The position numbers were made by a program, and so were the translations under genes. Source: a bacterium (lineage in GTDB: Bacteria > Bdellovibrionota_G > JALEGL01). From it: a stretch of 64,000 bases of DNA. Numbering within the stretch: the first letter of the stretch is position 1; every line of letters begins with the position of its first letter. The notes under the pieces are model-generated. The model saw only the letters and a list, made by a program, of their open reading frames with translations, ran no database searches and was not told where the DNA came from. This document shows, piece by piece, positions 1,416 to 15,882 of the stretch. Location of the stretch: positions 175,087-239,086 of the forward strand of contig JALEGL010000006.1 of NCBI GenBank assembly GCA_022763185.1, given 5' to 3'.

Positions 1416-2342
1416 ATGAAGACAGAGTCTCAACCCATATTAAGAATCAAAAATCTGAATAAAACCTATGAGGGAGGTTTTAGGGCATTAAAAAATGTTA
1501 ATCTGGAGTTAAAGCAAGGTGAAATATTGGCTTTATTGGGCCCCAATGGCGCGGGTAAAACAACCTTAATCAGTGCTATTTGCAGTTTAATCAATGTGAG
1601 CTCAGGACAAATTACAGTCAATGGTTTGGATATTGTTGAGGACTATAGAAAAGTTAGGCAATTGATAGGTTTGGTCCCGCAAGAAATTACCAGAGACTTG
1701 TTTGAAAAAGTAATGGATACCGTGAGTTTTTCAAGAGGTGTATTTGGTTTAAAGCCCAATGATGCTTATATCCAAAAAATTTTAGAAGACTTATCTTTGT
1801 GGGATAAACACAATGAAAAGCTTGGGGCTCTTTCCGGGGGAATGAAGCGTCGAGTAATGATTGCTAAAGCTTTAGCGCATGAGCCAAAAATATTATTTTT
1901 AGATGAACCCACTGCCGGTGTTGATGTGCAGTTGCGAGAGAGCATGTGGCGTCAGGTCGATGAACTGCGTAAAAATGGCGTTAGCGTTGTTTTGACTACA
2001 CATTATATTGAAGAAGCAGAGCGTATGGCAGACAGAATTGCTGTGATTAATAAGGGGGAAATTGTGGTCGTTGATGATAAATCAGCATTGATGAACGAGT
2101 TGGGTAAAAAAAGTTTAACAGTTTTTCTTAAAACAAAACTGCAAGCAATTCCAAAAGATCTTAACCAATTTGATTTAAGTTTATCTAAAGATGGATCTTC
2201 AATAACGTATACCTACGATATGAAACGAAAAAATGTAACCGACTTTTTCAGTGGTTTAGAGGCATGTAAAGTAGGGATTGAAGATATCAAGACCCATGAA
2301 ACATCTTTAGAAGAAATTTTTGTTAAACTTGTGGAGAAATAA
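1416..2342 (+). CDS. ABC transporter ATP-binding protein (ABC-2/DrrA-like, with C-terminal extension)
   Basis: Walker [10 protein letters not shown], signature LSGGMKRR and Walker [13 protein letters not shown] are all intact. Confidence 0.85.
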
Positions 2343-3103
2343 TGAATATTCAAGCCATCAAAGCCATTTATAAATTTGAAATGAAAAGAATGTGGCGTAC
2401 AGCCATGCAAAGCATTGCCTCACCCGTGATTTCTACCGCATTGTATTTTATAGTTTTTGGTTCAGCTATAGGTTCAAGAATGCAAGATATTGATGGTGTG
2501 AGTTATGGTTCGTTTATTGTTCCTGGGTTGGTGATGTTATCGGTACTGACCCAAAGCATATCCAATGCATCATTTGGAATTTACTTTCCACGTTTTACCG
2601 GGACCATTTATGAAATATTATCTGCACCTGTTTCTTATGTTGAAATCATTATTGGTTATGTTGGCGCAGCTGCAACAAAATCATTGATTATTGGGAGCAT
2701 TATATTGTTAACATCTGTTTTTTTTGTAGATCTTTACATTAAACATCCACTGATTATGATTTTATTTCTGTGCTTAACTTGTGTCACTTTTAGTATGTTG
2801 GGTTTTATTTTAGGATTATGGGCCGATGGGTTTGAAAAACTTAATATTATTCCTGTTTTAATCATTACACCATTAACTTTTTTGGGAGGGAGTTTTTACT
2901 CCATTAAGATGCTGCCAGAATTTTGGCAAAAAATATCCATGCTCAACCCCGTGGTGTATTTGATCAATGGTTTTCGTTGGAGTTTCTATGAAAATTCAGA
3001 CTTTAGCGTTTGGCTAAGTCTAAAAGCGATAGCTGTAATGCTTGTAATCTGTATTTTAGTAATTCGCTGGATTTTTAAAACAGGCTATCGTTTAAAAAGT
3101 TAA
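2342..3103 (+). CDS. ABC-2 type transporter permease
   Basis: Its start overlaps the ATPase stop (ATGA coupling). The 253-aa product is hydrophobic with about 6 predicted TM segments. Confidence 0.75.
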
Positions 3104-3110
3104 ACTTTAT

Positions 3111-4520
3111 TTAATTTACGCTTTGGTCAAAAACTTGATCAAAACCATTGGTAATTTTTAAATTTTTTGTCCATAAGCTTTCTAAAGCTAAATGGGTTTT
3201 AACTCTTTCAATATGAGTGTTGGCAACATCCTGTTCTCTGAGATTAACCAATAAAAAATTACTATCACCGTTTTCCCATCTAACTCGCTCAGCCAAGGCT
3301 AGCTTTTCAGCAATAGCGACCTCTTTATTAATGATATTCAGTTGCTCCAAAGCAATATTTTTTGAAACAATCAATTGATCATATTCATTGTAAAGTTTGG
3401 TTTTTTCAACAGTATAATTATGATTGAGTTCTCTTAGTTTACTTTTTGCTTGTAAGTACTTTGTATTGTTTCGTCTGTTTTGTAATGGAAAAGAAAATAA
3501 AGATGAAACATCAAGTTCTTCAGGTGCAAGAGTTTGCGAACCATCACCCAGATCACGACTATACTTTGCTTTAATTTTTAAGTCAGGCAAGCGCTTGACT
3601 TTTAAAAACTGTAAATTTTGATCAATGATTTTTTGTTTAAATTCTATCATGCTGAGTTTTGGAAAACGGTTAAGTATTGTCTCAGAAGCCTTAGGAAAAG
3701 TAAGTAAGGATGGATCAATGTTTTTTGGTTTTAATTTGGAGCTATCCACTGTATCTACAGCGGTACCATTTTTATTTCTTAGAAAAAAAGATAAGTAAAT
3801 CGCTGAATTATCCATCAATTGTTGCGCTAATAAAAGTTTTCGTTCCCTTTCAAAAATATAGCGTTGGTTCTCCTCAAGATAAATTTTTGCGATATCTCCC
3901 GCCTTATTTTTTTTGACCAAAGCATCTTGCCTGTTTTTAGCTAAGTTCAAAAGGTTCTGATAAATTTTGTATGTTTGTGCATAGGCTTTCCATTTAAAAA
4001 AAGCTTTTGCTGCCATTTCTTGAAAAATAATTTTATTGAGTTGCAATTGTTGATTTTGAATTTTATTTTTATATTGCGCCTCAATGAGCGCAAGACGTCT
4101 TGGGTCTTTGATAAAAGATTGTAAAATAGACCACTCTATACCAAAGCTCATCTCACCATCACTGAGGGTTTCTAGGTTGCCTTCGTAACCTGGAAAGTCG
4201 CCTGTGCTTTTTCTAAACTTGCCGTATATATCAACACCGGACCAAGGAAGACTTTGCTCAATATAAGTAGAAAAATAGCTGCCATCATAAAAACCTGTTG
4301 CCGCATAATTGTTTTCAAAATTTAACTTGGTATCAAATAAGCTTTTGGCAATTTGAATATCTTGTTCACTTTGTTTTAACTTTTCCATTTGTTCTAGCAT
4401 GGCGGGGTGAAATTGACTTGCAGAATGAAGCACTTGCTCTAAACTAATTTCAGATGCTTGCGCATAAATACTTAATAAATAAAAGCCTATAAGCCACAAT
4501 GGTTTTTTTTGTTTATTCAT
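3111..4520 (-). CDS. TolC family outer membrane efflux protein
   Basis: Signal peptide MNKQKKPLWLIGFYLLSIYAQA. The 469-aa product has the two-repeat coiled-coil/beta architecture typical of OEP/TolC. Its start overlaps the HlyD stop. Confidence 0.75.
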   Translation of the reverse strand: MNKQKKPLWLIGFYLLSIYAQASEISLEQVLHSASQFHPAMLEQMEKLKQSEQDIQIAKSLFDTKLNFENNYAATGFYDGSYFSTYIEQSLPWSGVDIYGKFRKSTGDFPGYEGNLETLSDGEMSFGIEWSILQSFIKDPRRLALIEAQYKNKIQNQQLQLNKIIFQEMAAKAFFKWKAYAQTYKIYQNLLNLAKNRQDALVKKNKAGDIAKIYLEENQRYIFERERKLLLAQQLMDNSAIYLSFFLRNKNGTAVDTVDSSKLKPKNIDPSLLTFPKASETILNRFPKLSMIEFKQKIIDQNLQFLKVKRLPDLKIKAKYSRDLGDGSQTLAPEELDVSSLFSFPLQNRRNNTKYLQAKSKLRELNHNYTVEKTKLYNEYDQLIVSKNIALEQLNIINKEVAIAEKLALAERVRWENGDSNFLLVNLREQDVANTHIERVKTHLALESLWTKNLKITNGFDQVFDQSVN

Positions 4521-5581
4521 TTTTTCTTTTCAAATTTACCACTGGTGAGATCTTTATCAACTGCTAAAGGAAAGCCATTAAAAATTCGCCAAATTTCGTA
4601 TCCCAGTTTAACTTCATCAAGCGTAATCCAAGCATGAGCTCGTGTTCCTTGTCTTAAAAAACGTTCATCTGGCCATGGCAACTCTTCTGGATCAGGTATT
4701 ATTGTTACCCTAAACTTACCATTTTTTTCTTGTGAAGAGTCCGTTGACCAGACAATACCAGCAAAAGTTCCTACAGCAAGCGCCGGCCAGCCAGTTGATT
4801 GAACTGCAGGCCAACCTTCAAACTGAATTCTTACTTTTCTACCAGGATAGACCAATGGGAAATCATTGCCATCAACAAAAATTTCAACCGCTTGCTTTTC
4901 TGACTTTGGAAGGAAGCGTGCAACTTTATCGCCTTTTTTGATGTTCAGGTTGTTGGCTCCGGGGATAACGTAGAGAATTGTTCCATCAGAGGGTGCTCTT
5001 ACAATTCTGAGCTCTTGACGTGATAGGGAGACTTCAGTTTTTGCTAGTTCTGCCTCATCCTGAGCTAACTGAGACTGTAGCTTTTTATAATTAATTTTTG
5101 CATACTCAAAGTCTTTTTGTGAGGCAAGACCTTCTTTATAAAGTTTTTCTTGTCGCAAGTAATTCTTTTTTGCTGTCTCTGAAGCAATTTTTGAGACTTC
5201 CATTTTTTTACGTTTAGCAGTGGTTTCTTTTCTCAAGCGATTAATTAATTGAGGATCGTTATCAATAATTTCAACAATGGGGTCGCCTTTTTTAACAATA
5301 CTTCCATCTTGGACATACCATTTGGAAACGATACCATCGACAAAGCTTTCTAAATTTTGAATTCTACTGTTTGGATCTAAGGCAATTACATGACCATCAC
5401 CGGCAGTGGTTTGAATCCAAGGAACAAAAAACAACATCAAAATAAAAATTGAAAATAAGCTGATGACACTAATACTAATAACTGAGGCAAATTTAGGTGA
5501 TTGAATATATGATTTTGTTTTAAAAACATTAGAATGTGTTGTTGTAGGTTTAAAATTGACATTCATTGTTTTATTTCCCAC
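4517..5581 (-). CDS. HlyD family membrane fusion protein (periplasmic adaptor)
   Basis: N-terminal TM anchor, a long coiled-coil (LQSQLAQDEAELAKTEVSLSRQELRI) and a C-terminal beta domain. Overlaps both the upstream ABC gene and the downstream TolC gene. Confidence 0.8.
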   Translation of the reverse strand: MGNKTMNVNFKPTTTHSNVFKTKSYIQSPKFASVISISVISLFSIFILMLFFVPWIQTTAGDGHVIALDPNSRIQNLESFVDGIVSKWYVQDGSIVKKGDPIVEIIDNDPQLINRLRKETTAKRKKMEVSKIASETAKKNYLRQEKLYKEGLASQKDFEYAKINYKKLQSQLAQDEAELAKTEVSLSRQELRIVRAPSDGTILYVIPGANNLNIKKGDKVARFLPKSEKQAVEIFVDGNDFPLVYPGRKVRIQFEGWPAVQSTGWPALAVGTFAGIVWSTDSSQEKNGKFRVTIIPDPEELPWPDERFLRQGTRAHAWITLDEVKLGYEIWRIFNGFPLAVDKDLTSGKFEKKK

Positions 5582-7203
5582 TTAAGTTGAACTTTTTGGT
5601 TATAGATTTTTGGGTTATTGAGTTGTTTTCCAAAATGAAGCAGTGTCCATTCGTGGTGATCTTGACTAACATAGTGTAAGACTTTGTCTTGACGTTCTTG
5701 GGAAAGCAGTTCAAAAGATTCATTTAAAATTAAAACTTTGGGTTTAAGCAATATAGCGCGTGCAATATCTAAGCGAGGCAGTTGGCTTTTCCATAAAGGT
5801 GAACCATTGGGTAGCATGGTGGTGTTAAGCTGTTTATCTAATAGGCTGATGCTTTCTTCAAGTTCAAGCATTTCCAAAATGGCATAAATATCTTGGTCTT
5901 TAATGTCAGGTAAACCTAGCGTTAAATTTTCTTTGATACTTCCTTCAATAAAATTAGGATAGCCGCAGTCGTATATATTTAAACGTAAATCTTGGATGGG
6001 TATATTATTAGACTTTATATTATTGATGAATAAATGTCCTGAACCGGCAGAGTTTTGTCCAAACAAATGGTCGATGACAATTTCTTTACAAGAGCTTTCA
6101 TTAACTTGAAAATGTACTTTACTCTTAAAGGGGATATCCATAGATAGCTTAAAAAACTTATTCCGACTTGAAACATAGATATCTTTAATATGAATATCCA
6201 TCTTTTCAAATGACTTTGCTTTCATGTTTGAATCTTCAATTTCAAAAGCAAAAAGATGTGATATTTTTTCTGAAGCGGCAATCAGATCATAGAACATTTC
6301 TAAATATTTAGATGACTTGGCTAAGCTTATAAGAATGCTGGTGACAATAATTTCTGCCGCAACCAACTGACCTAAAGACAATTGGTTTTGATTAACAAGG
6401 TATCCACCTAAGCCCAAAAGTAATGAGCTACAGACAGCAAATAAGGTAGAAAGCATAATAATCTGACCAAGAAGGTAGTTAAAGTGTTTCTTTCTTTTTT
6501 CAACATATCCGGCAATGTATGTTTCTGATTGTTTTTGTGAAATACTTCGAATTTGAGAGGCAGCTAAAAGCTCATAAGCAAAACCCGATTGTTCGAGCCA
6601 ACTGATGAATTTGTATTTTGCTTTAGATTCTTCAACGGCAGTTTTTATAGCTTTTTGTCCAAATAAAAACCAGACGCAAAACAAGTAAAAAATCAAGAAA
6701 GCATCAAAGGCTAAAAATAGGGGGTGGTAAAAACCGATAAAGACTAGACCAACAAAAAGTTGCAGTAAAAGTGCAAAGCCATCAGTCATCAAAATAGAAA
6801 TGTTTTTCTGCAAACTAAAAACATCAAAAAAACGATTGATCAATTCAGGAACATTTTTATTCCGAAAAAGTTTGGCTTTGGCCAGATAGATCCGATTGGT
6901 TACTTCTGAGCCAAGTTGAGCAAAAACTTTTCTATGAAATAAGTCAATAAGCCATGCTTGGGTAACCTGAAAAAAGGCTGAGCTGATTAAAACAATAAAC
7001 AATAGTAAGCTTACGATAATTATGGGCTGGCTCAATGAGGTGAAACTTACGCTATTGACCAAAGCTTGAACAGAAAGCGGAATAGCCAAACTTAAAACTG
7101 AAACAATAACTCCAAAAAACAGAATATTTAAAACAAAGCCCCTGCTAGACTGTAAAATAAATGTAAACAATTGACCTAAAATTTGAAATGGACTTGGCTT
7201 CAT
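5563..7203 (-). CDS. ABC exporter-like protein (6-TM domain plus NBD) with a degenerate, probably non-catalytic nucleotide-binding domain
   Basis: N-terminal half is a 6-TM exporter domain. The C-terminal NBD is recognisable by spacing, but Walker A is ...GQNSAGSGH (no GKS/T lysine), the Q-loop Gln is absent, the signature reads LWKSQ instead of LSGGQ, Walker B is VLILNES (Asp changed to Asn), and the D-loop is ELLS. Confidence 0.7.
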   Translation of the reverse strand: MKPSPFQILGQLFTFILQSSRGFVLNILFFGVIVSVLSLAIPLSVQALVNSVSFTSLSQPIIIVSLLLFIVLISSAFFQVTQAWLIDLFHRKVFAQLGSEVTNRIYLAKAKLFRNKNVPELINRFFDVFSLQKNISILMTDGFALLLQLFVGLVFIGFYHPLFLAFDAFLIFYLFCVWFLFGQKAIKTAVEESKAKYKFISWLEQSGFAYELLAASQIRSISQKQSETYIAGYVEKRKKHFNYLLGQIIMLSTLFAVCSSLLLGLGGYLVNQNQLSLGQLVAAEIIVTSILISLAKSSKYLEMFYDLIAASEKISHLFAFEIEDSNMKAKSFEKMDIHIKDIYVSSRNKFFKLSMDIPFKSKVHFQVNESSCKEIVIDHLFGQNSAGSGHLFINNIKSNNIPIQDLRLNIYDCGYPNFIEGSIKENLTLGLPDIKDQDIYAILEMLELEESISLLDKQLNTTMLPNGSPLWKSQLPRLDIARAILLKPKVLILNESFELLSQERQDKVLHYVSQDHHEWTLLHFGKQLNNPKIYNQKVQLKWEIKQ

Positions 7204-7221
7204 AAACTTTTCTTGCAGAGG

Positions 7222-7533
7222 TTACCTGGTTGTGTTGATAAGTGAAAGTAAATCCGCAACTTTTTTATGCTTTTCTATGGGATGTCTTAAGGGTTTATCA
7301 TGTTTAACCGTATAGGTGTTTTGGCGACCATGTTTTTTACATGTGACGTAATGATCATTTTTGAGTTCTTTAATAATTTGATGAACGGCACGTTCCGTAA
7401 TGCCTACAGTAGTAGAAATTTCTTTCATGGTAATATCGTGTTTTTGATTGAGGACGAATAAAATATGAGCATGGTTTGAAAAAAAAGTCCATTGGCTTGC
7501 TTTCATAACATCAATGTAGCATTGATTATTCAT
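7222..7533 (-). CDS. winged helix-turn-helix transcriptional regulator
   Basis: 103-aa product with ITMKEISTTVGITERAVHQIIKELKNDHYV (HTH) followed by a KKHGRQNTYTV wing. It is divergent from the ROK kinase gene and sits at the head of the ABC-HlyD-TolC string. Confidence 0.5.
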   Translation of the reverse strand: MNNQCYIDVMKASQWTFFSNHAHILFVLNQKHDITMKEISTTVGITERAVHQIIKELKNDHYVTCKKHGRQNTYTVKHDKPLRHPIEKHKKVADLLSLINTTR

Positions 7534-7693: not shown

Positions 7694-8587
7694 ATGAAGA
7701 AAAAGCTTATTGCTTTTGATCTAGGTGGCCATAATTTACGTGCAGCATTGATTGATCAAGAGCTTAATATTCTAGAAAAAAAATCTGAACGAACAGTTTC
7801 TGGTCGTAAACTTTCTGATGTTATTGATCAGATAAAAAACCTTTATCAGGCTTTAAGCAAGGATAAGCTTTTACCCATCAGTTTGTCTATCCCAGGCTAT
7901 GTTAAAAAAGACCAAACCATTGCCTGTGCACCCAATTTTCCACAGTGGATCAATATCAAAATTATAGATCAAATATGCCAAGCAATGAACTTATCTATAG
8001 AACAGTGTCATACGCTCAATGATGCCAATGCTGTAATGCTAGCAGAGCAAAAATTAGGCAATGCACAAGGTATCAGTGATTGTTTGTATCTGGGTATAGG
8101 TACGGGTATAGGTGGAGCAATTGTATCAGATGGCCAGTTGTTAATGGGCCATGATTCAATGGCAGGAGAGTTGGGCCATATGTCTATTCACATGGATGGC
8201 CCACTGTGTGGATGTGGAAATTATGGTTGTATTGAAGCTTATGTTTCAGCGTCGGCATTGGAAGCTAAACACCAAAAGAGTCTAAAAGCCATTGCTGATA
8301 GTGCCAGAAAAGGTGAAGAGGCTGCACAAAAGGTTTATCATGATCTGGGAAAACATTTGGGTGTAGCCATAGCCTCATTGGTTAATTTATTTAATCCTCA
8401 ACGTATATTGCTTGGTGGACGGGTGAGCCGCTCAAAAGATTTATTTGAAAACACACTGAATGAAGAATTAAAAGCCCGCTTAAAAAACCATCCTGGTCGG
8501 GATGTAGAAGTTATGCCAGCGCATTTAGGCGATGATGCAGGTATGATAGGTGCAGCTGTTGGGTATTTTTCAAAAATCAAAGGATAA
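7694..8587 (+). CDS. ROK family sugar kinase (glucokinase/N-acetylglucosamine kinase-like)
   Basis: N-terminal IAFDLGGHNLRAAL ATPase fold plus the ROK zinc motif HMSIHMDGPLCGCGNYGCIEAY. Confidence 0.8.
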   Translation: MKKKLIAFDLGGHNLRAALIDQELNILEKKSERTVSGRKLSDVIDQIKNLYQALSKDKLLPISLSIPGYVKKDQTIACAPNFPQWINIKIIDQICQAMNLSIEQCHTLNDANAVMLAEQKLGNAQGISDCLYLGIGTGIGGAIVSDGQLLMGHDSMAGELGHMSIHMDGPLCGCGNYGCIEAYVSASALEAKHQKSLKAIADSARKGEEAAQKVYHDLGKHLGVAIASLVNLFNPQRILLGGRVSRSKDLFENTLNEELKARLKNHPGRDVEVMPAHLGDDAGMIGAAVGYFSKIKG

Positions 8588-8649
8588 GATCCCATAAAAT
8601 ATTAAAGAATTTCTTGCCAATCGCAGTTTGAGCACATAAAAAAACAGGC

Positions 8650-9921
8650 ATGAATCATCAGTCAGTTAGTCAGTTTTTTGGTGCAGTTGTTTTAAGTTTA
8701 GTTGGGATTGTTTTTGCGGGTCAGGTTGAGGTCTTACATTGGTGGACATCAGCCAGTGAGGCAGAATCGGTTAATGTCCTTAAGAACTTACTAGAAAAAG
8801 AGGGGCATGCTTGGAAAGATTTTGCTGTTGCTGGCGGTGGCGGTGAAAATGCCATGACCGTATTAAAAAGTAGAGTGGTTTCGGGTAATGCGCCAACGGC
8901 TGCGCAAATTAAAGGTCCTGCAATTCAAGAGTGGGCCAGTATGGGAATGAATGCTAACTTGGATGCGGTTGCAAAAGCTGAAAAATGGGACAGCAAAATT
9001 TATACACCGCTTATTGATCACCTTAAATACAACAAACACTATGTGGCGGTTCCTGTGAATATTCATAGGGTCAACTGGTTATGGGTAAATCCCAGTGTCT
9101 TTAAAAAGGCAAAAGTTAAAGTCCCCACAAGCTGGCAAGAGTTAGAATCTGCTGCACAGGCCTTGCAAGCTTATGCCGTTAAAAATAAACTCAAAAACTT
9201 TACACCCATAGCGCATGGCGGACAAAACTGGCAAGATGCCACTGTGTTTGAAGCTATTGTCTTGTCTGAAGGTGGTTCTCAACTATATACCGATGCATTT
9301 ATAAACTTAAAAAAAGAAGCGCTGACAGGCGCAGCCATGCAAAATGTCTTTAAAAAACTTAGAAACTATAAGCGATATACTGATAAAGGCAGCACTGGTA
9401 GAGATTGGAATCAGGCAACAGCCATGGTGATAAAAGGCAATGCCGGCATGCAAATCATGGGTGATTGGGCCAAAGGTGAGTTTGTAAAAGCCGGTAAAAA
9501 ACCGGGTGTAGATTATTTATGTGTACCTGTGCCAGGCACCCAAGGTGATTTTACTTACAATGTCGATAGCTTTGTGATGTTTAAAAGTAAAAACCCAAAA
9601 TCTGAGGCAGCACAAAATGCTATGGCCAAGCTTATTTTGCAGGAAGAGTTTCAAAAAGTATTCAATATCAATAAAGGTTCAGTACCTGTGAATAAAAATA
9701 TCAAAGCCAGTGAGTTTGATGCCTGTGGGCAACAGTCCATTAAAGATATCAATGCAAGCATCAGCAATAAAAGTTTCTTGCCAAGCATGGCGCACGGCAT
9801 GTCAAGTTCACCCGCTGTTCAAGGTGCTATTTTTGATGTTGTGACCAACTTCTTTAACTCTCAACAGTCAGAAAAAGAAGCTGCTGCAAAACTTTATCAA
9901 TCCATCAAGGCCAGTCAATAG
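8650..9921 (+). CDS. sugar ABC transporter substrate-binding protein (CUT1 family)
   Basis: 423-aa product with a signal/anchor sequence. Family-typical VLHWWTS motif. It precedes two permeases and a MalK-like ATPase. Confidence 0.75.
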   Translation: MNHQSVSQFFGAVVLSLVGIVFAGQVEVLHWWTSASEAESVNVLKNLLEKEGHAWKDFAVAGGGGENAMTVLKSRVVSGNAPTAAQIKGPAIQEWASMGMNANLDAVAKAEKWDSKIYTPLIDHLKYNKHYVAVPVNIHRVNWLWVNPSVFKKAKVKVPTSWQELESAAQALQAYAVKNKLKNFTPIAHGGQNWQDATVFEAIVLSEGGSQLYTDAFINLKKEALTGAAMQNVFKKLRNYKRYTDKGSTGRDWNQATAMVIKGNAGMQIMGDWAKGEFVKAGKKPGVDYLCVPVPGTQGDFTYNVDSFVMFKSKNPKSEAAQNAMAKLILQEEFQKVFNINKGSVPVNKNIKASEFDACGQQSIKDINASISNKSFLPSMAHGMSSSPAVQGAIFDVVTNFFNSQQSEKEAAAKLYQSIKASQ

Positions 9922-9922
9922 T

Positions 9923-10804
9923 TTGAAGCTTAAGTTACATCGTCTCTGGGAGAAAGTTGTTGCTAAGGTGATGATTTCTCCCACGCTTATTATCGCTATG
10001 GTCTTTATCTATGGCTTTATTGGATGGACGCTTTGGTTATCTATGACCAACTCTACATTGTTACCCAGTCATGAGTTTGTAGGCTTAAAACAATATTATA
10101 AACTTTTTCAAAACGATCGTTGGTGGGTGGCCATTAAAAATCTTGGGATTTTTAGTGTTTTGTATGTTGGGATGTGTATAGCCTTGGGTTTGGCTTTGGC
10201 TATTTTTTTAGATCAAAAAATTAGAATGGAAAATACCATTCGCAGCATCTACTTGTATCCAATGGCTTTATCTTTTATTGTGACTGGAACCGCCTGGAAA
10301 TGGATGCTTAATCCCAGTTATGGACTTGAAACAGTTTTGCAAAATCTGGGTTTTGCCAATGCCAGTTTTGATTGGTTGGTCAATCCCAAGATGGCCATTT
10401 ATACTGTGGTGATTGCAGCTGTTTGGCAATCTTCTGGTTTTGTGATGGCCTTGTTTTTATCAGGTTTAAGAGGTGTGGATGAAAAAATGATTCAGGCTGC
10501 CCAGATCGATGGTGCCAACGCATGGCAAATTTATCGTAAAATTATTATTCCAGGCATGTCACCGGTATTTTTTAGCGCCATTATGATTTTAACCCATATT
10601 GCCATTAAAAGTTTTGACTTGGTCATGGCTTTGACCCAAGGGGGACCAGGCTATGCTACAGAGTTGCCGGCAACCTTTATGTATACCTTTGCCTTTCAGC
10701 GCAGTAAAATGGCCATGGGCTCAGCCAGTGCTGTCATGATGTTAATGGCAGTCATGGCCATTATCGTTCCATTTGTTTATGCTCAAACCAAGGAGCCAAA
10801 ATAA
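9923..10804 (+). CDS. sugar ABC transporter permease (MalF/UgpA-like)
   Basis: 6-TM permease carrying the EAA-like loop QIDGANAWQIYRKIIIPGMSP. Confidence 0.8.
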   Translation: MKLKLHRLWEKVVAKVMISPTLIIAMVFIYGFIGWTLWLSMTNSTLLPSHEFVGLKQYYKLFQNDRWWVAIKNLGIFSVLYVGMCIALGLALAIFLDQKIRMENTIRSIYLYPMALSFIVTGTAWKWMLNPSYGLETVLQNLGFANASFDWLVNPKMAIYTVVIAAVWQSSGFVMALFLSGLRGVDEKMIQAAQIDGANAWQIYRKIIIPGMSPVFFSAIMILTHIAIKSFDLVMALTQGGPGYATELPATFMYTFAFQRSKMAMGSASAVMMLMAVMAIIVPFVYAQTKEPK

Positions 10805-11673
10805 TGCTAAAACACTCCCAAAGATCAAATATACTGATCCGTTGGTCAATATACACTGTCTTGATTGTGATGGCCGTATACTACTTAATTCCGTTTTTTA
10901 TTATGCTTATGACGTCTTTAAAAAGCATGGCAGATATTCGCTCGGGTAGTTTATTATCTTTACCCAAGAATATTGATTTTTCTGCCTGGTTTAGGGCATG
11001 GAATAGTGCGTGTGCCAGTATTGCCTGTGAGGGAGTGCGCCCTTATTTTTTTAATTCCATTAAAATTGTTGTTCCATCAGTTTTAATATCAACAGCCATT
11101 GGCGCTTTGAATGGTTATATATTTTCTCATTGGAAATTTAAAGGGTCTGATATTTGTTTTACGGCACTTTTGGTGGGCTGCTTTATTCCTTTTCAAATTA
11201 TCATTTTACCCATGGCGCAACTTTTAGGTAAAGTTGGTTTATCCAATTCTTATTGGGGCCTGGTTTTGGTGCACGTGATTTATGGTATTGCCGGTACAAC
11301 ATTATTTTTTAGAAACTATTATACCAATATCCCAGCAGAGTTGCTCAATGCAGCTAAAGTGGATGGGGCACATTTTTTCACCATTTTTTTTAAAATCCTA
11401 CTGCCTTTATCTGGACCTATCATTACGGTGACGGTTATTTGGCAGTTTACTCAAATATGGAATGACTTTTTATTTGGGGTTATTTTTTCTAGTGCCGATA
11501 CCCAACCCATTACGGTTGCTTTGAATAATTTGGTCAATGTTTCTATGGGAGAAAAAGAGTACAACGTGCATATGGCAGCAGCCATTATTGCGGCTATTCC
11601 AACACTCTTGGTGTATGTTTTAGCTGGCAAGTATTTTGTTAGAGGATTAACCGCAGGTTCAGTAAAAGGATAG
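10804..11673 (+). CDS. sugar ABC transporter permease (MalG/UgpE-like)
   Basis: Overlapping start (ATAATG). EAA-like loop AKVDGAHFFTIFFKILLPLSGP. Confidence 0.8.
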   Translation: MLKHSQRSNILIRWSIYTVLIVMAVYYLIPFFIMLMTSLKSMADIRSGSLLSLPKNIDFSAWFRAWNSACASIACEGVRPYFFNSIKIVVPSVLISTAIGALNGYIFSHWKFKGSDICFTALLVGCFIPFQIIILPMAQLLGKVGLSNSYWGLVLVHVIYGIAGTTLFFRNYYTNIPAELLNAAKVDGAHFFTIFFKILLPLSGPIITVTVIWQFTQIWNDFLFGVIFSSADTQPITVALNNLVNVSMGEKEYNVHMAAAIIAAIPTLLVYVLAGKYFVRGLTAGSVKG

Positions 11674-11681
11674 ACGAAGAA

Positions 11682-12773
11682 ATGACACAAGCCTTACAAA
11701 TCAATAATTTAAATAAATCCTTTGGCCAGCAGCAGATTTTAAAAAATATCAATCTGTCTTTACAGGCTGGAGAGTTTTTAATTTTGGTGGGCCCCAGTGG
11801 TTGTGGCAAGAGTACCTTGCTCAATTGTATTGCCGGTTTAGAAAACCCAGATTCTGGCGATATCGTTATTTCAGATAAAAACGTAACGGACCTTCTACCC
11901 AAAGACAGAGACATTGCCATGGTCTTTCAATCTTATGCTTTGTACCCCAATATGACAGTAAGAGAGAACTTAGCTTTTGGTATGAAGATGCGTAAGCGTT
12001 CTAAAGCGTATATTAATCAAAAAATTGATGAAGTGGCCAAGTCATTGGAGATAGAACATTTATTGTCCCGAAAACCGGCCAAGCTATCTGGTGGACAACG
12101 TCAGCGCGTGGCTATGGGCAGAGCCATGGCCAGAACGCCTTCTTTGTTTTTATTTGATGAACCTTTAAGTAACCTAGATGCAAAGTTGCGCGTAGGCATG
12201 CGTAAAGAAATTAGGCAACTGCATGATAGCCAAAATTGTGCAACAGTATATGTGACTCATGATCAAATTGAGGCCATGACCTTGGGAGACAGGGTTGCCG
12301 TGATGAAAGAGGGGGAAGTGGTACAATTGGATACCCCAGAAAATATTTATGCGCATCCGGTCAATACCTATGTTGCACAATTTATGGGATCGCCCAGTAT
12401 GAATATTTTTGAAACAAAAATTATCAATAAAAATCAAAAAAGATTTCTGCTCCTTGAGTCAACCGACGCAAACTATGAATTAGAAGCACCACAAAAACTT
12501 ACAGAGCATGAAAAAGTTTTATTGGGCATACGGCCAGAAGGGATGACTTCAAAGCCTAGTAGAACTTTAGACCCTTTTGAAATAAAAAGTGCAGTAGAAT
12601 TTACTGAGCCCACTGGTGCAGATACCTTGGTTCACACCACCATTAATAATAAACCGGCAGTGGCCAGGTGCAGGCCAAAACACGTGTGTGCAAAAGGTGA
12701 GAGCATGAGTTTGTATTTAAACCAAGCCAATTTTTTGTTTTTTGATCCAAACACCGGAGAAAGAATTCATTAA
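11682..12773 (+). CDS. sugar ABC transporter ATP-binding protein (MalK/UgpC-like with C-terminal TOBE-like domain)
   Basis: Walker A GPSGCGKST, signature LSGGQRQRVAMGRA and Walker B LFLFDEPLSNLD are intact. Confidence 0.85.
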   Translation: MTQALQINNLNKSFGQQQILKNINLSLQAGEFLILVGPSGCGKSTLLNCIAGLENPDSGDIVISDKNVTDLLPKDRDIAMVFQSYALYPNMTVRENLAFGMKMRKRSKAYINQKIDEVAKSLEIEHLLSRKPAKLSGGQRQRVAMGRAMARTPSLFLFDEPLSNLDAKLRVGMRKEIRQLHDSQNCATVYVTHDQIEAMTLGDRVAVMKEGEVVQLDTPENIYAHPVNTYVAQFMGSPSMNIFETKIINKNQKRFLLLESTDANYELEAPQKLTEHEKVLLGIRPEGMTSKPSRTLDPFEIKSAVEFTEPTGADTLVHTTINNKPAVARCRPKHVCAKGESMSLYLNQANFLFFDPNTGERIH

Positions 12774-12932
12774 ATACAGCAACGCCCTCAAAAGATGGAG
12801 CTTGGCTTTTAGGCTTTGGTTTAATTTCAGATTTTAAAGATATCCATTGGTTTTTAGCGCATAATCGTATACGTTTTCGAGCTTTCGTCGTAATTTTATA
12901 GAATAAAATAAGTTCTTATTAGGGAATGTATT

Positions 12933-14522
12933 ATGGAAGCTAAATCAAATATTATAAATTCATATCAAGGCAGTATCCAGAGTGATATTTTCTCTGGTAT
13001 CACCGTAGCATTGGCTTTGGTTCCAGAAGCTGTAGCTTTTGCGTTTGTTGCAGGCGTATCGCCCATTGTAGGTTTGTATGGAGCATTTATGATGTGTTTA
13101 ATCACATCTATTTTTGGTGGACGCCCAGGCATGATTTCAGGGGCTACTGGGGCAATGGCGGTTGTGATGGTTCATTTGGTCAGTGAAGGAAATGCCTTGG
13201 GGCCTGCTGGTGCATACACCGGCGTACAGTATCTGTTTTTAACACTTTTACTGGTTGGAATACTGCAAGCTTTGGCAGGAATATTTAAAATGGGTAAACT
13301 GATTCGATTGGTGCCCAGCCCGGTAATGATGGGTTTTGTCAATGGCTTGGCTATTGTTATCTTCTTGTCTCAATTGAACATGCTTAAAGTGAATGGACAG
13401 TGGTTGGCTGGTCAAACAATGCTGACCATGCTGATATTGATTGGCATAACTTTGATTTTACTGTTTTTAATTCCAAAAATTCATAAAAAAGCACCCGGCG
13501 CGTTGATCGCAATTATTGTGGTTACACTCTTGGTTCTTGCCCTTAAGCTGGATACATCAACGGTACTTTCTTTTATTCAGTCTAATGGAGGAACAGGAAT
13601 TAAGGGGCAGTTGCCCAGCTTTCATTTTCCTAAAGTGGCAATGAACCTGACTACTCTTCAGTTTATTTTTCCTTATGCCATGATTTTGGCAGCCATTGGT
13701 TTGATTGAGTCGCTGATGACCTTAAACCTTATTGATGATTTAACCAAAACTCGCGGTAATGGCAACAAGGAATGCATTGCACAGGGTTTAGGGAACTTTG
13801 TTAACGGTCTGTTTGGTGGCATGGGAGGCTGTGCAATGATTGGACAAAGTATGATTAATATAAGTTCAGGAGGAAGGGGAAGGTTATCAGGTATTACGGC
13901 CGCTTTATCTTTATTGGTGTTTATTTTATTTGGCTCTCAATACATTGAAGCAGTTCCTATTGCAGCGTTGGTAGGCGTTATGTTTTTTGTGGTATTTAAA
14001 ACCTTTGCTTGGAACACATTTAAAATTATAAACAAAGTTCCAAAATGGGATGTAGCCATTATTATTATTGTTACAGTTTTAACTGTTGTATTTGATTTAG
14101 CTATTGCGGTAGTCAGTGGAGTTATTATTTCAGCACTTTTATTTTCTTGGGAAAATGCATTACGAATCAGAGCCCGCAAACGCATTGATGAAAAAGGAAT
14201 CAAGCATTATGAAATTTATGGACCTTTGTTTTTTGGTTCAACAGCGCTGTTTGCCAGTAAATTTGATGCAGAGAACGATCCGGATGAAGTTATTATTGAT
14301 TTTAAAGACTCACGAGTGATGGATCAGTCTGCTATAGAAATCATCAATAAAATTGCTGAAGACTATTTAAAACATGGTAAAAACATTCACCTTAGACATT
14401 TGAGTAAAGATTGCACAAGACTGATCAAAAAAGCAGAAAAAATTTGTGATGTGAATGTTCTGGAAGATCCAGATTATTTTGTCAGTATTGATAATTATAA
14501 ACAGTACAAGTTAAGTCGGTAA
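12933..14522 (+). CDS. SulP family inorganic anion transporter with C-terminal STAS domain
   Basis: GITVALALVPEAVAFAFVAGVSP, then multiple TM segments, then a C-terminal STAS-like region (IIDFKDSRVMDQSAIEII). Confidence 0.85.
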   Translation: MEAKSNIINSYQGSIQSDIFSGITVALALVPEAVAFAFVAGVSPIVGLYGAFMMCLITSIFGGRPGMISGATGAMAVVMVHLVSEGNALGPAGAYTGVQYLFLTLLLVGILQALAGIFKMGKLIRLVPSPVMMGFVNGLAIVIFLSQLNMLKVNGQWLAGQTMLTMLILIGITLILLFLIPKIHKKAPGALIAIIVVTLLVLALKLDTSTVLSFIQSNGGTGIKGQLPSFHFPKVAMNLTTLQFIFPYAMILAAIGLIESLMTLNLIDDLTKTRGNGNKECIAQGLGNFVNGLFGGMGGCAMIGQSMINISSGGRGRLSGITAALSLLVFILFGSQYIEAVPIAALVGVMFFVVFKTFAWNTFKIINKVPKWDVAIIIIVTVLTVVFDLAIAVVSGVIISALLFSWENALRIRARKRIDEKGIKHYEIYGPLFFGSTALFASKFDAENDPDEVIIDFKDSRVMDQSAIEIINKIAEDYLKHGKNIHLRHLSKDCTRLIKKAEKICDVNVLEDPDYFVSIDNYKQYKLSR

Positions 14523-14701
14523 AGTTATTCTTAGAATAATATTTATGCAGGTAAAAAATAAACTGCGCTAAACTATGCAAAGCTAGCAAATCTTTTATTT
14601 AGAGCTTTAAAGGTTCTAACCATTATGAGTCTATAGTTGAACTAAGAATATTAGAGTTTAAATATTCATCATATCTATACGGAGAAGGTGTAAAGAAAAA
14701 A

Positions 14702-15121
14702 ATGACATGTTCTGAAGTCATAAAAAAATACAAACTGTACCCGGAACCTTGGAGAAGTAAGTTGTTAAAGTTAAGAGAGTTGATTTTTGCAACAGCAGAA
14801 AAAAACCAACACATTGATGGTCTCATAGAATCTTTAAAATGGGGTGAACCTAGCTATACGCCAAGACAAAAAAACATAGGAACATCCCTTAGACTGAGTT
14901 GGTCAAAAAAGAAACCCCATCAGTATGGAATATATGTGCCTTGTCAAAGCAATTTAATTGCCCAGTATCAATTAATGTTTGGTGAAACGTTAAACTATGA
15001 AGGCAAACGAGGCTTGATTTTTTATGAAAAAGACAGACTTCCTAAAAAAACCATTGAAGCCTGCATTCATATGGCACTTAATTATCACTTGAACAAAAAA
15101 ACAATCAGGCATAAATTTTAA
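14702..15121 (+). CDS. hypothetical protein (DUF1801/YdhG-like?)
   Basis: 139-aa product. The family assignment is a weak impression from the WGEPSY motif only. Confidence 0.4.
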   Translation: MTCSEVIKKYKLYPEPWRSKLLKLRELIFATAEKNQHIDGLIESLKWGEPSYTPRQKNIGTSLRLSWSKKKPHQYGIYVPCQSNLIAQYQLMFGETLNYEGKRGLIFYEKDRLPKKTIEACIHMALNYHLNKKTIRHKF

Positions 15122-15806: not shown

Positions 15807-15882
15807 TGGTGGAGCCTAGGGGGATCGAACCCCTGACCTCAACGCTGCCAGCGTTGCGCTCTCCCAGCTGAGCTAAGGCCCC
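15807..15882 (-). tRNA. tRNA-Ala (anticodon GGC)
   Basis: The reverse complement GGGGCCTTAGCTCAGCTGGGAGAGCGCAACGCTGGCAGCGTTGAGGTCAGGGGTTCGATCCCCCTAGGCTCCACCA folds as a cloverleaf with a G3:U70 pair and anticodon loop CTGGCAG. The CCA end is encoded. Confidence 0.85.

Follow-up and report, generated by a model that had tools for sequence, protein, structure and literature searches.

A predicted tripartite exporter operon in Bdellovibrionota whose ABC-fold subunit lacks intact ATP-site motifs

We analysed a 64,000-nucleotide stretch of the genome of a bacterium of the Bdellovibrionota_G lineage JALEGL01 (GenBank assembly GCA_022763185.1, contig JALEGL010000006.1, forward-strand positions 175,087 to 239,086; hereafter the window, with positions counted from its first letter), in which four head-to-tail minus-strand open reading frames (ORFs) form an operon for a winged helix-turn-helix (wHTH) regulator, an ATP-binding cassette (ABC) protein, a membrane-fusion/periplasmic adaptor protein (MFP) and an outer-membrane factor (OMF) that is TolC-like. 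The operon most likely encodes a regulator-controlled, envelope-spanning tripartite (ABC-MFP-OMF) exporter. Judged from its sequence, the ABC protein has none of the motifs (Walker A, Q-loop, signature, Walker B Asp, D-loop, H-loop) left intact and cannot form a canonical ATP site, and its nucleotide-binding domain (NBD) is a folded domain under purifying selection, referred to below as a pseudo-NBD. With slightly better than even confidence, we read the system as an exporter in which the pseudo-NBD would have a structural or gating role and transport would not be powered by canonical ATP hydrolysis. The genes and the segments that carry the argument are as follows.

7222-7533, minus strand: wHTH regulator, first gene of the operon, 103 aa, Pfam HTH_24
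5563-7203, minus strand: ABC-fold inner-membrane subunit, type IV exporter transmembrane domain (TMD) plus pseudo-NBD, 546 aa, GenBank MCI5072001.1
6244-7203, minus strand: TMD of the ABC protein, aa 1-320, with six long helices plus a pair of coupling helices (DSSP of the model)
6721-6729, minus strand: TMD hallmark Y159-H160-P161, near-invariant in degenerate and motif-intact relatives
6352-6372, minus strand: TMD hallmark G278-QLVAA-E284, near-invariant in both kinds of relatives
5566-6201, minus strand: pseudo-NBD, aa 335-546, RecA-like ABC fold kept, nucleotide-contact residues lost
6082-6105, minus strand: Walker A-equivalent VNESSCKE, aa 367-374 (alignments and translation)
5956-5973, minus strand: Q-loop-equivalent YDCGYP, aa 411-416, without Gln (alignments and translation)
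5782-5796, minus strand: signature-equivalent LWKSQ, aa 470-474 (alignments and translation)
5701-5736, minus strand: Walker B-equivalent VLILNE, aa 490-495, and D-loop-equivalent ELLS, aa 498-501
5626-5646, minus strand: H-loop-equivalent TLLHFGK, aa 520-526, with Lys526 in the His column
4517-5581, minus strand: MFP, 354 aa
5120-5155, minus strand: RLS-type TolC-docking motif RQEKLYKEGLAS, MFP aa 143-154, predicted to lie mid-hairpin
3111-4520, minus strand: TolC-like OMF, 469 aa, signal peptide, no lipobox

Canonical ABC motifs comprise a Walker A of the form GxxGxGK[ST], a Q-loop Gln, the signature LSGGQ, a Walker B of the form hhhhDE, the D-loop SALD and an H-loop His. We registered them on the ABC protein by a phmmer alignment to ComA, a MAFFT alignment with 120 relatives, many of which carry textbook motifs, an hmmalign alignment of a further 80 genomic homologs, and an hhalign comparison between a profile of 57 degenerate NBDs and a profile of 31 motif-intact NBDs of the same family, where the two profiles matched with a probability of 100% and an E-value of 2.6e-49 over 214 nearly gapless columns. 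The four methods were concordant on every motif position. The Walker A column reads VNESSCKE, in which the three Gly and the Ser/Thr are lost and a Lys (K373) is kept in the Walker lysine column, and a regular-expression search for GxxxxGK[ST] across the whole ABC protein returned zero matches. The Q-loop column reads YDCGYP with the Gln lost, the signature column LWKSQ, within a PLWxSQ that is conserved in the query's sub-clade, and the Walker B column VLILNE, with Asp replaced by Asn and Glu kept (Glu495), while the D-loop column is ELLS and K526 replaces the H-loop His. A preliminary description, made from the DNA alone, had stated that every catalytic motif had drifted and had placed the signature, the Walker B Asn, the D-loop and the loss of the Q-loop Gln at the positions found here. 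It was also right that no Walker A is intact, but it had taken GQNSAGSGH (aa 382-390) for the Walker A column and reported no lysine there; this candidate was rejected, as it aligns with a 'GLxxPxxGxI' segment downstream of the P-loop helix, and the lysine of the true column is present.

That the NBD keeps its fold, as the same description had proposed, was confirmed by an AlphaFold2 model of the ABC-protein monomer built on an 84-sequence family alignment (predicted local distance difference test score, pLDDT, 91.2; predicted template-modelling score, pTM, 0.82). The model shows six long transmembrane helices joined by periplasmic loops of one to five residues, a pair of coupling helices and, at the C-terminal end, an NBD whose RecA-like/helical fold is complete. 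Foldseek matched it with template-modelling scores of 0.87 to PCAT1 (8voz) and 0.90 to HlyB (8dck_A), with Sav1866 inside this range, and grouped it with TmrAB and TM287/288 as well. At the P-loop site, strand 362-367 is followed by helix 370-380 and the loop between them is shortened to two residues. Pfam ABC_membrane scored 36.4 bits on the protein and passed its cutoff of 28; ABC_tran scored 19.5 bits, under its cutoff of 25, with a match restricted to profile positions 28-135, so that the Walker A part was skipped. Compared with the 75%-identical ortholog of locus L001, the proportion of non-synonymous differences (pN) was 0.15 in TMD and NBD alike, where the proportion of synonymous differences (pS) was ∼0.75 and saturated, and pN/pS was 0.20 in the NBD, the same as in the TMD. 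It is from this equality and from the confident model that we conclude that the pseudo-NBD is a folded domain under purifying selection. Orthologs with the same substitutions, whose conservation the preliminary description had named as a sign of function, were found on searching, and the degeneracy is conserved and selected and does not represent decay.

The NBD residues kept across the degenerate group belong to the scaffold only (G389, R407, E420, L443, L448, G467, P469, L470, A481 and P488); every nucleotide-contact column is lost, and the Walker lysine column is mostly Gln (0.58) across the whole group. The window copy falls in this group, whose NBD also retains its fold and its contacts with the coupling helices. 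The TMD hallmarks are identical in degenerate and intact members and include P42, Q46 and N50, K196, Q247 and Y305, an NRFFD..QK stretch after coupling helix 1, the Y159-H160-P161 turn between the third and fourth transmembrane helices, and G278-QLVAA-E284 at the start of the sixth (TM6). Several of these residues map to the periplasmic helix ends of the model, where an adaptor or a gate would be expected to act. The ratio of NBD to TMD identity was 0.61 in degenerate, 0.72 in partial and 0.86 in intact members, and the TMD was the more conserved domain family-wide, whereas the NBD is the most conserved part in ordinary ABC exporters (PMC7756269).

The ABC protein belongs to a family that, in the reading we favour, descended from the ABC proteins of type I secretion systems (T1SSs) and peptide exporters (LssB/HlyB/PCAT-like) and is large and uncurated. 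The query retrieved hundreds of proteins at more than 270 bits, compared with only 65 bits for the top PDB sequence match, ComA, and no NCBIfam model reached its cutoff for the query (57-86 bits) or for its motif-intact relatives. The nearest relative of MCI5072001.1 is a protein from an Oligoflexia metagenome-assembled genome (75% identity). When 1.84 billion cluster representatives were scanned exhaustively with HMMER, 1,197 clusters (50% identity) were found at E <= 1e-30 and 2,328 at E <= 1e-10. In a GTDB scan with one genome per species, searched with the TM6 hallmark GQL[VI]AAE, at least 588 species genomes carried confirmed relatives, in phyla including Planctomycetota, Acidobacteriota, Myxococcota, Bdellovibrionota, and Alpha- and Gammaproteobacteria. 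Among the hosts in culture are Alteromonas spp. (Alteromonas genovensis homolog WP_163106919.1), Salinimonas chungwhensis (WP_018983349.1), Methylotuvimicrobium buryatense, Methylomonas, Erythrobacter and Aeoliella. The gene order ABC-MFP-OMF with exactly one family ABC gene was found in loci L001-L009 and in essentially all of 80 GTDB loci, a count of ∼85 loci with enough flank from many phyla; the preliminary description had called a fully degenerate NBD in a single-copy exporter beside its own adaptor and TolC a non-standard arrangement, which in the sense of an isolated case is not supported, given this recurrence. Dead NBDs are not peculiar to this locus either, as dozens of distinct lineages carry fully dead ones.

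We counted members as fully degenerate when they had neither GK[ST] nor the Walker B Asp and as full when they had Walker A, Asp-Glu and His. Among 200 distinct sequences, 57 were fully degenerate and 104 kept Walker A and Asp, including 31 full ones, and a second census of 139 further 50%-cluster representatives gave 24 dead, 97 partial and 17 full members, both samples being biased toward relatives of the degenerate query and thus not expressing family-wide frequencies. Two length classes were seen among the relatives, a short one of ∼555 aa, to which the query belongs, and a long one of 700-750 aa; 23 of the 24 fully degenerate members in the second census were short. Fully degenerate members among the named genomic loci came from Bdellovibrionota, Alpha- and Gammaproteobacteria, and Bdellovibrionota hold both types (motif-intact L010, L020 and L041; degenerate L001, L021 and the window copy). 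Several distinct patterns of degeneration were seen, among them PLWxSQ/TESF, PLQPxE/NQHF, PLNEEE/NEI, PLTITE/GQLF and a separate 'SEGIDKG/LLLLDKV' group, and a rough neighbour-joining tree of the TMD alone required ∼5 parsimony changes for the degenerate state and placed 38 of the 55 degenerate sequences together in a single pure clade. In the reading we favour, catalytic residues were lost several times in the family, the rough tree giving a provisional view of whether the degenerate state is monophyletic.

The canonical Q-loop Gln was missing even in relatives with Walker A, Asp-Glu and His intact (consensus VALVRGIE; for example P0015 and P0017), and by its sequences the whole family is atypical, not the dead clade alone. 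Long-form relatives (P0082, P0087 and P0051; L013-L017 and others) were mainly from Planctomycetota and methanotrophs and carried an N-terminal extension of ∼170 aa that aligns with the N-terminal (C39-like) region of LssB and had no Pfam match; they were paired with longer MFPs (∼450-500 aa) and OMFs (∼550-600 aa), ORF lengths at high-GC loci being perhaps over-extended. At locus L008, whose family ABC protein keeps Walker A, the Asp-Glu of Walker B and the His of the H-loop intact, genes for ExbB, ExbD, TonB and a TonB-dependent receptor (11155-15115) directly follow the OMF gene, a single case that may be coincidental.

The preliminary description had also joined the wHTH, ABC, MFP and OMF genes into one tripartite minus-strand operon, and the junctions, read directly, agree with this. 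Eighteen nucleotides separate the wHTH stop from the downstream ABC ATG, the MFP stop and the OMF start share an ATGA, and the MFP start, taken as the annotated GTG at 5581, gives a 19-nt overlap with the ABC gene, within which an in-frame MFP ATG at 5566 overlaps the ABC stop TGA as another ATGA. A scan for promoters and terminators gave no signal exceeding the shuffled background.

The MFP consists of an N-terminal transmembrane anchor (hydrophobic segment aa 31-54), a lipoyl domain, an alpha-hairpin and a beta-barrel, with Pfam matches to HlyD_3 (45.7 bits), Biotin_lipoyl_2 (33.2 bits) and HlyD_D23. Its match to the NCBIfam model of resistance-nodulation-division (RND) adaptors, TIGR01730 RND_mfp, was sub-threshold (78.9 bits, cutoff 94.9), and the nearest solved structures were MacA (4dk0, E 6e-8) and RND adaptors, not HlyD. 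At the centre of its hairpin of ∼80 residues, RQEKLYKEGLAS was found by regular expression and ortholog comparison to match RxxxLxxxxxxS, the pattern that defines the TolC-docking RLS motif (PMC3391258). The OMF matched Pfam OEP with 88.8 bits in two stretches, corresponding to two OEP repeats, and has a signal-like N-terminus, MNKQKKPLWLIGFYLLSIYAQA, without a lipobox; no NCBIfam match and no PDB sequence match were found for it. The regulator matched Pfam HTH_24 (31.5 bits), with weak MarR/ArsR-like matches. Homologs of this wHTH protein (37-66% identity) adjoin the cassette in ∼17 related loci from several phyla, and other regulators adjoining it were of the LysR type in 24 loci and of the TetR type in one. 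As to cargo, no ORF with two or more GGxGxD repeats was found within the 64-kb window by a crude scan, cargo genes being capable of lying elsewhere, and no gene for a double-glycine (GG) leader peptide was found close to the operon by a crude scan. Because the MFP is MacA/RND-like, the regulators are of the LysR, TetR and wHTH types, and no repeats-in-toxin (RTX) or GG-leader cargo gene is nearby, the operon resembles an inducible efflux-type system more than a classical T1SS; the preliminary description had named both type I secretion and MFP-dependent efflux and spoken of a T1SS-type exporter. The exported compound, probably a small molecule or a small peptide, would be sensed via the adjacent wHTH regulator.

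Among known systems, HlyB-HlyD-TolC, LssB and PrtD have in common with the window system a tripartite ABC-MFP-OMF operon, the type IV fold and a transmembrane-anchored adaptor with an RLS/RLT-type motif at the hairpin tip, and the best curated sequence models for the window ABC protein were LssB, NHLM and HlyB. However, the protein scores only 8-12% of the T1SS model cutoffs (TIGR01846 HlyB, 62.5 versus 725.55; TIGR03375 LssB, 86.3 versus 693.1; TIGR01842 PrtD, 57.3 versus 510.15), begins directly at the TMD without the C39-like domain of HlyB, is accompanied by a MacA-like adaptor of 354 aa where HlyD-type adaptors have ∼480 aa, has lost all ATPase motifs, and has no RTX or C-terminal-signal cargo gene in the window. 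PCAT1, ComA and bacteriocin exporters provided the best PDB matches in both sequence (ComA, 65 bits) and structure (PCAT1, 0.87), but differ in that the window protein lacks the peptidase domain, has a dead NBD and sits in an MFP/OMF cassette; TIGR01193 scored 83.4 on it (cutoff 523.85) with a match starting at profile position 148, the peptidase region being absent. MacAB-TolC is similar in its short transmembrane-anchored adaptor, in having local regulators beside the cassette and in an efflux-pump-like operon logic. MacB, however, has a type VII fold with four transmembrane helices, a large periplasmic domain and an N-terminal active NBD, whereas the window protein is of type IV with six transmembrane helices, a C-terminal NBD, periplasmic loops of one to five residues and no ATP site.

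The heterodimeric exporters TM287/288, TmrAB, BmrCD and Rv1273c/72c have the same fold, and departures from the NBD consensus are both tolerated and functional in such exporters (PMC7756269), but the two adjacent genes of a TM287/288-type exporter keep one canonical site where the single chain of the window has lost every motif. LmrA-MD, an engineered NBD-less LmrA, and the SbmA/BacA transporters (SLiPT) use an ABC-exporter membrane fold driven by an ion gradient without ATP (PMC2704374, PMC8442886, PMC13316013); neither has an NBD, and in SbmA the coupling helices are missing as well, while the window family keeps a folded pseudo-NBD and both coupling helices, would export via an MFP/OMF duct, and showed no ladder of conserved membrane glutamates like that used for proton coupling in SLiPT transporters, only E284. 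This likeness concerns a possible mode of action, not family membership. EmrAB-TolC offers only a functional analogy, with a non-ATP inner-membrane transporter of an unrelated major facilitator superfamily (MFS) fold, a transmembrane-anchored adaptor, a TolC-type duct and a small wHTH regulator of the MarR type. No description of a fully degenerate tripartite ABC system was found in a literature search outside whose reach most subscription-journal papers lay.

In the mechanism we propose, the inner-membrane type IV ABC-fold protein would act as a homodimer, the MacA-like transmembrane-anchored adaptor would dock via its RLS hairpin tip onto the TolC-like channel, and the pseudo-NBD would be a structural module for dimerisation or gating, its coupling to the TMD running through the coupling helices that are retained. 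Transport would proceed without canonical ATP hydrolysis on the ABC protein, export through the MFP/OMF duct being driven by an ion gradient or the membrane potential, or running downhill. Precedents are that LmrA-MD is a secondary-active transporter (PMC2704374), that transport by MsbA is proton-coupled (PMC4979069) and that an origin from ABC ancestors whose NBDs were lost has been proposed for the SbmA-type proton-driven transporters (PMC8442886, PMC13316013). Several points weigh against this proposal. The query's own sub-clade retains Lys373 in the Walker lysine column and Glu495 in the catalytic-Glu column, which on sequence grounds leaves room for a non-canonical nucleotide interaction. 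The TMD of the degenerate group has gained no group-specific membrane carboxylates, proton relay or 'glutamate ladder', and its sole invariant membrane-proximal acidic/His pair (E284, H160) is also present in motif-intact relatives. The structure model is that of a monomer whereas a homodimer is proposed, the energy source is assigned by analogy, the censuses carry the bias stated above, and the part of the genome inspected was 64 kb, which leaves room for a partner encoded in trans. A wider generalization, which we put forward tentatively and as less probable than the proposal for the window system itself, is that these proteins form a natural class of tripartite exporters, widespread and of the type IV ABC fold, that have given up ATP hydrolysis and kept the coupling helices and a folded pseudo-NBD, an evolutionary intermediate between ATP-driven ABC exporters and SbmA-type secondary transporters, performing ion-gradient- or potential-driven or gated facilitated efflux, with the pseudo-NBD repurposed for dimerisation or regulation.

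We considered that the ABC protein might be no transporter: as a membrane scaffold, a plug or a regulator it might assemble the MFP-OMF duct or gate it, for instance to let a periplasmic substrate through, or it might have a signalling role. The location of its most conserved TMD residues (P42/Q46/N50, Y159-H160-P161 and G278-E284) at periplasmic helix ends, in the adaptor-contact zone, and the want of an energy module would fit such a role. The model, however, retains the entire exporter fold of six helices at high confidence, along with the two coupling helices, and relatives whose ATPase motifs are complete have the same TMD hallmarks, which argues for a transport function shared by dead and complete members; we regard this explanation as unlikely, although less so than the others. 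Alternatively, the chain might be half of a heterodimer in which an active ABC half encoded elsewhere supplies ATP hydrolysis, as the preliminary description had suggested. Degenerate-site heterodimeric exporters are common in bacteria (PMC7756269; PDB matches TM287/288, TmrAB, BmrCD and Rv1273c/72c), Bdellovibrionota hold motif-intact as well as degenerate family members, and our inspection of the genome was confined to the window, which has one ABC_membrane-type gene and no second exporter-type ABC. Against this, no second family ABC gene lies beside the cassette in any of the ∼85 loci, and motif-intact relatives have MFP and OMF genes of their own. The partner genes of known heterodimers are normally adjacent. 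Furthermore, a single chain here has lost both the Walker A/B/H set and the signature/D-loop set, so that, whatever the partner, one of the two composite sites would be dead and the second would have no signature, whereas known heterodimers split the deviations between their chains and one site stays canonical (PMC7756269). With both composite sites crippled in this way, such pairing is disfavoured and we consider it improbable.

Slightly more improbable still, in our view, is a role in which a nucleotide, or some other phosphorylated ligand, is still bound or slowly hydrolysed by the NBD at a non-canonical site (Lys373, Glu374, Asn494 and Glu495), the domain working like the switch of CFTR or SUR and not as a motor. 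The Lys and Glu columns are indeed kept in the closest relatives P0001-P0004 (CKE/CKD, NES/TET), the strong conservation of 'PLWxSQ..R' in the sub-clade suggests a functional surface at the former signature, and many relatives with Walker A and Asp but neither the catalytic Glu nor the His fit binding without hydrolysis. On the other hand, the three P-loop Gly and the Mg-coordinating Ser/Thr are gone, the loop in the model has two residues, and across the degenerate group no nucleotide-contact residue is conserved, with Gln prevailing in the Walker lysine column. A decaying pseudogene or annotation artefact, for which the ABC_tran score under the Pfam cutoff and the NCBI name, merely 'ABC transporter transmembrane domain-containing protein', could be cited, is practically ruled out by the intact 546-aa ORF translationally coupled to the MFP gene, the pN/pS of 0.20 in the NBD, the confident model, and orthologs at 38-75% identity in which these substitutions recur within the same kind of cassette.

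ATP-driven dimerisation of the NBDs is the defining trait of ABC exporters. The family inverts the usual pattern, since its membrane domain and its partnership with MFP and OMF are conserved while several lineages have lost catalytic residues of the NBD, some of these lineages all of them. The fold, the architecture and the partners were already known; new is a conserved, widespread tripartite ABC-fold system with a non-catalytic NBD on a single, apparently homodimeric chain. If export without ATP hydrolysis holds true, the family would be a natural test of the debated secondary-transporter mode of ABC-exporter membrane domains (LmrA-MD, MsbA proton coupling), a present-day intermediate along the route that has been proposed for SbmA-type transporters and an additional energy-coupling mode for tripartite envelope pumps. 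Homologs in cultured Alteromonas, Salinimonas and Erythrobacter make the question of a 'secondary-active ABC fold' testable. Databases label family proteins 'ABC transporter ATP-binding protein', a label almost certainly wrong for the degenerate members.

The surroundings of the operon over the 64 kb are those of an ordinary core chromosome, with genes for CarB, RecG, LepA, urocanase and tRNA-Ala. On the plus strand at 1416-3103, an ABC-2 exporter pair of a DrrA-like ATPase (308 aa, 1416-2342) and a YadH-like permease (NF011648, 246 bits) is convergent on the OMF gene with a 7-nt gap, and its permease is 95.6% identical to the L001 ortholog, compared with 64-79% for the cassette. The preliminary description had suggested predicting the structure of a heterodimer with this ATPase; we rejected such a partnership, as the ATPase has its own permease and the pair is syntenic in the closest relative only, its absence from all other family loci indicating that it is not part of the exporter system. 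At 463-1242 on the minus strand, a 259-aa ORF has an N-terminal type IV pilin-like prepilin segment, GFTLLELVIAIAIIGLIA, and matches no Pfam family at E <= 1e-5. Divergent from the wHTH gene, the region 7694-12773 on the plus strand encodes a ROK-family kinase followed by a sugar-type ABC importer comprising SBP_bac_1, two BPD_transp_1 permeases and a MalK-like ATPase (domains from the L001 annotation), a block that is syntenic in the closest relative only. The tRNA-Ala gene (GGC; 15807-15882, minus strand) is the sole tRNA gene in the window.

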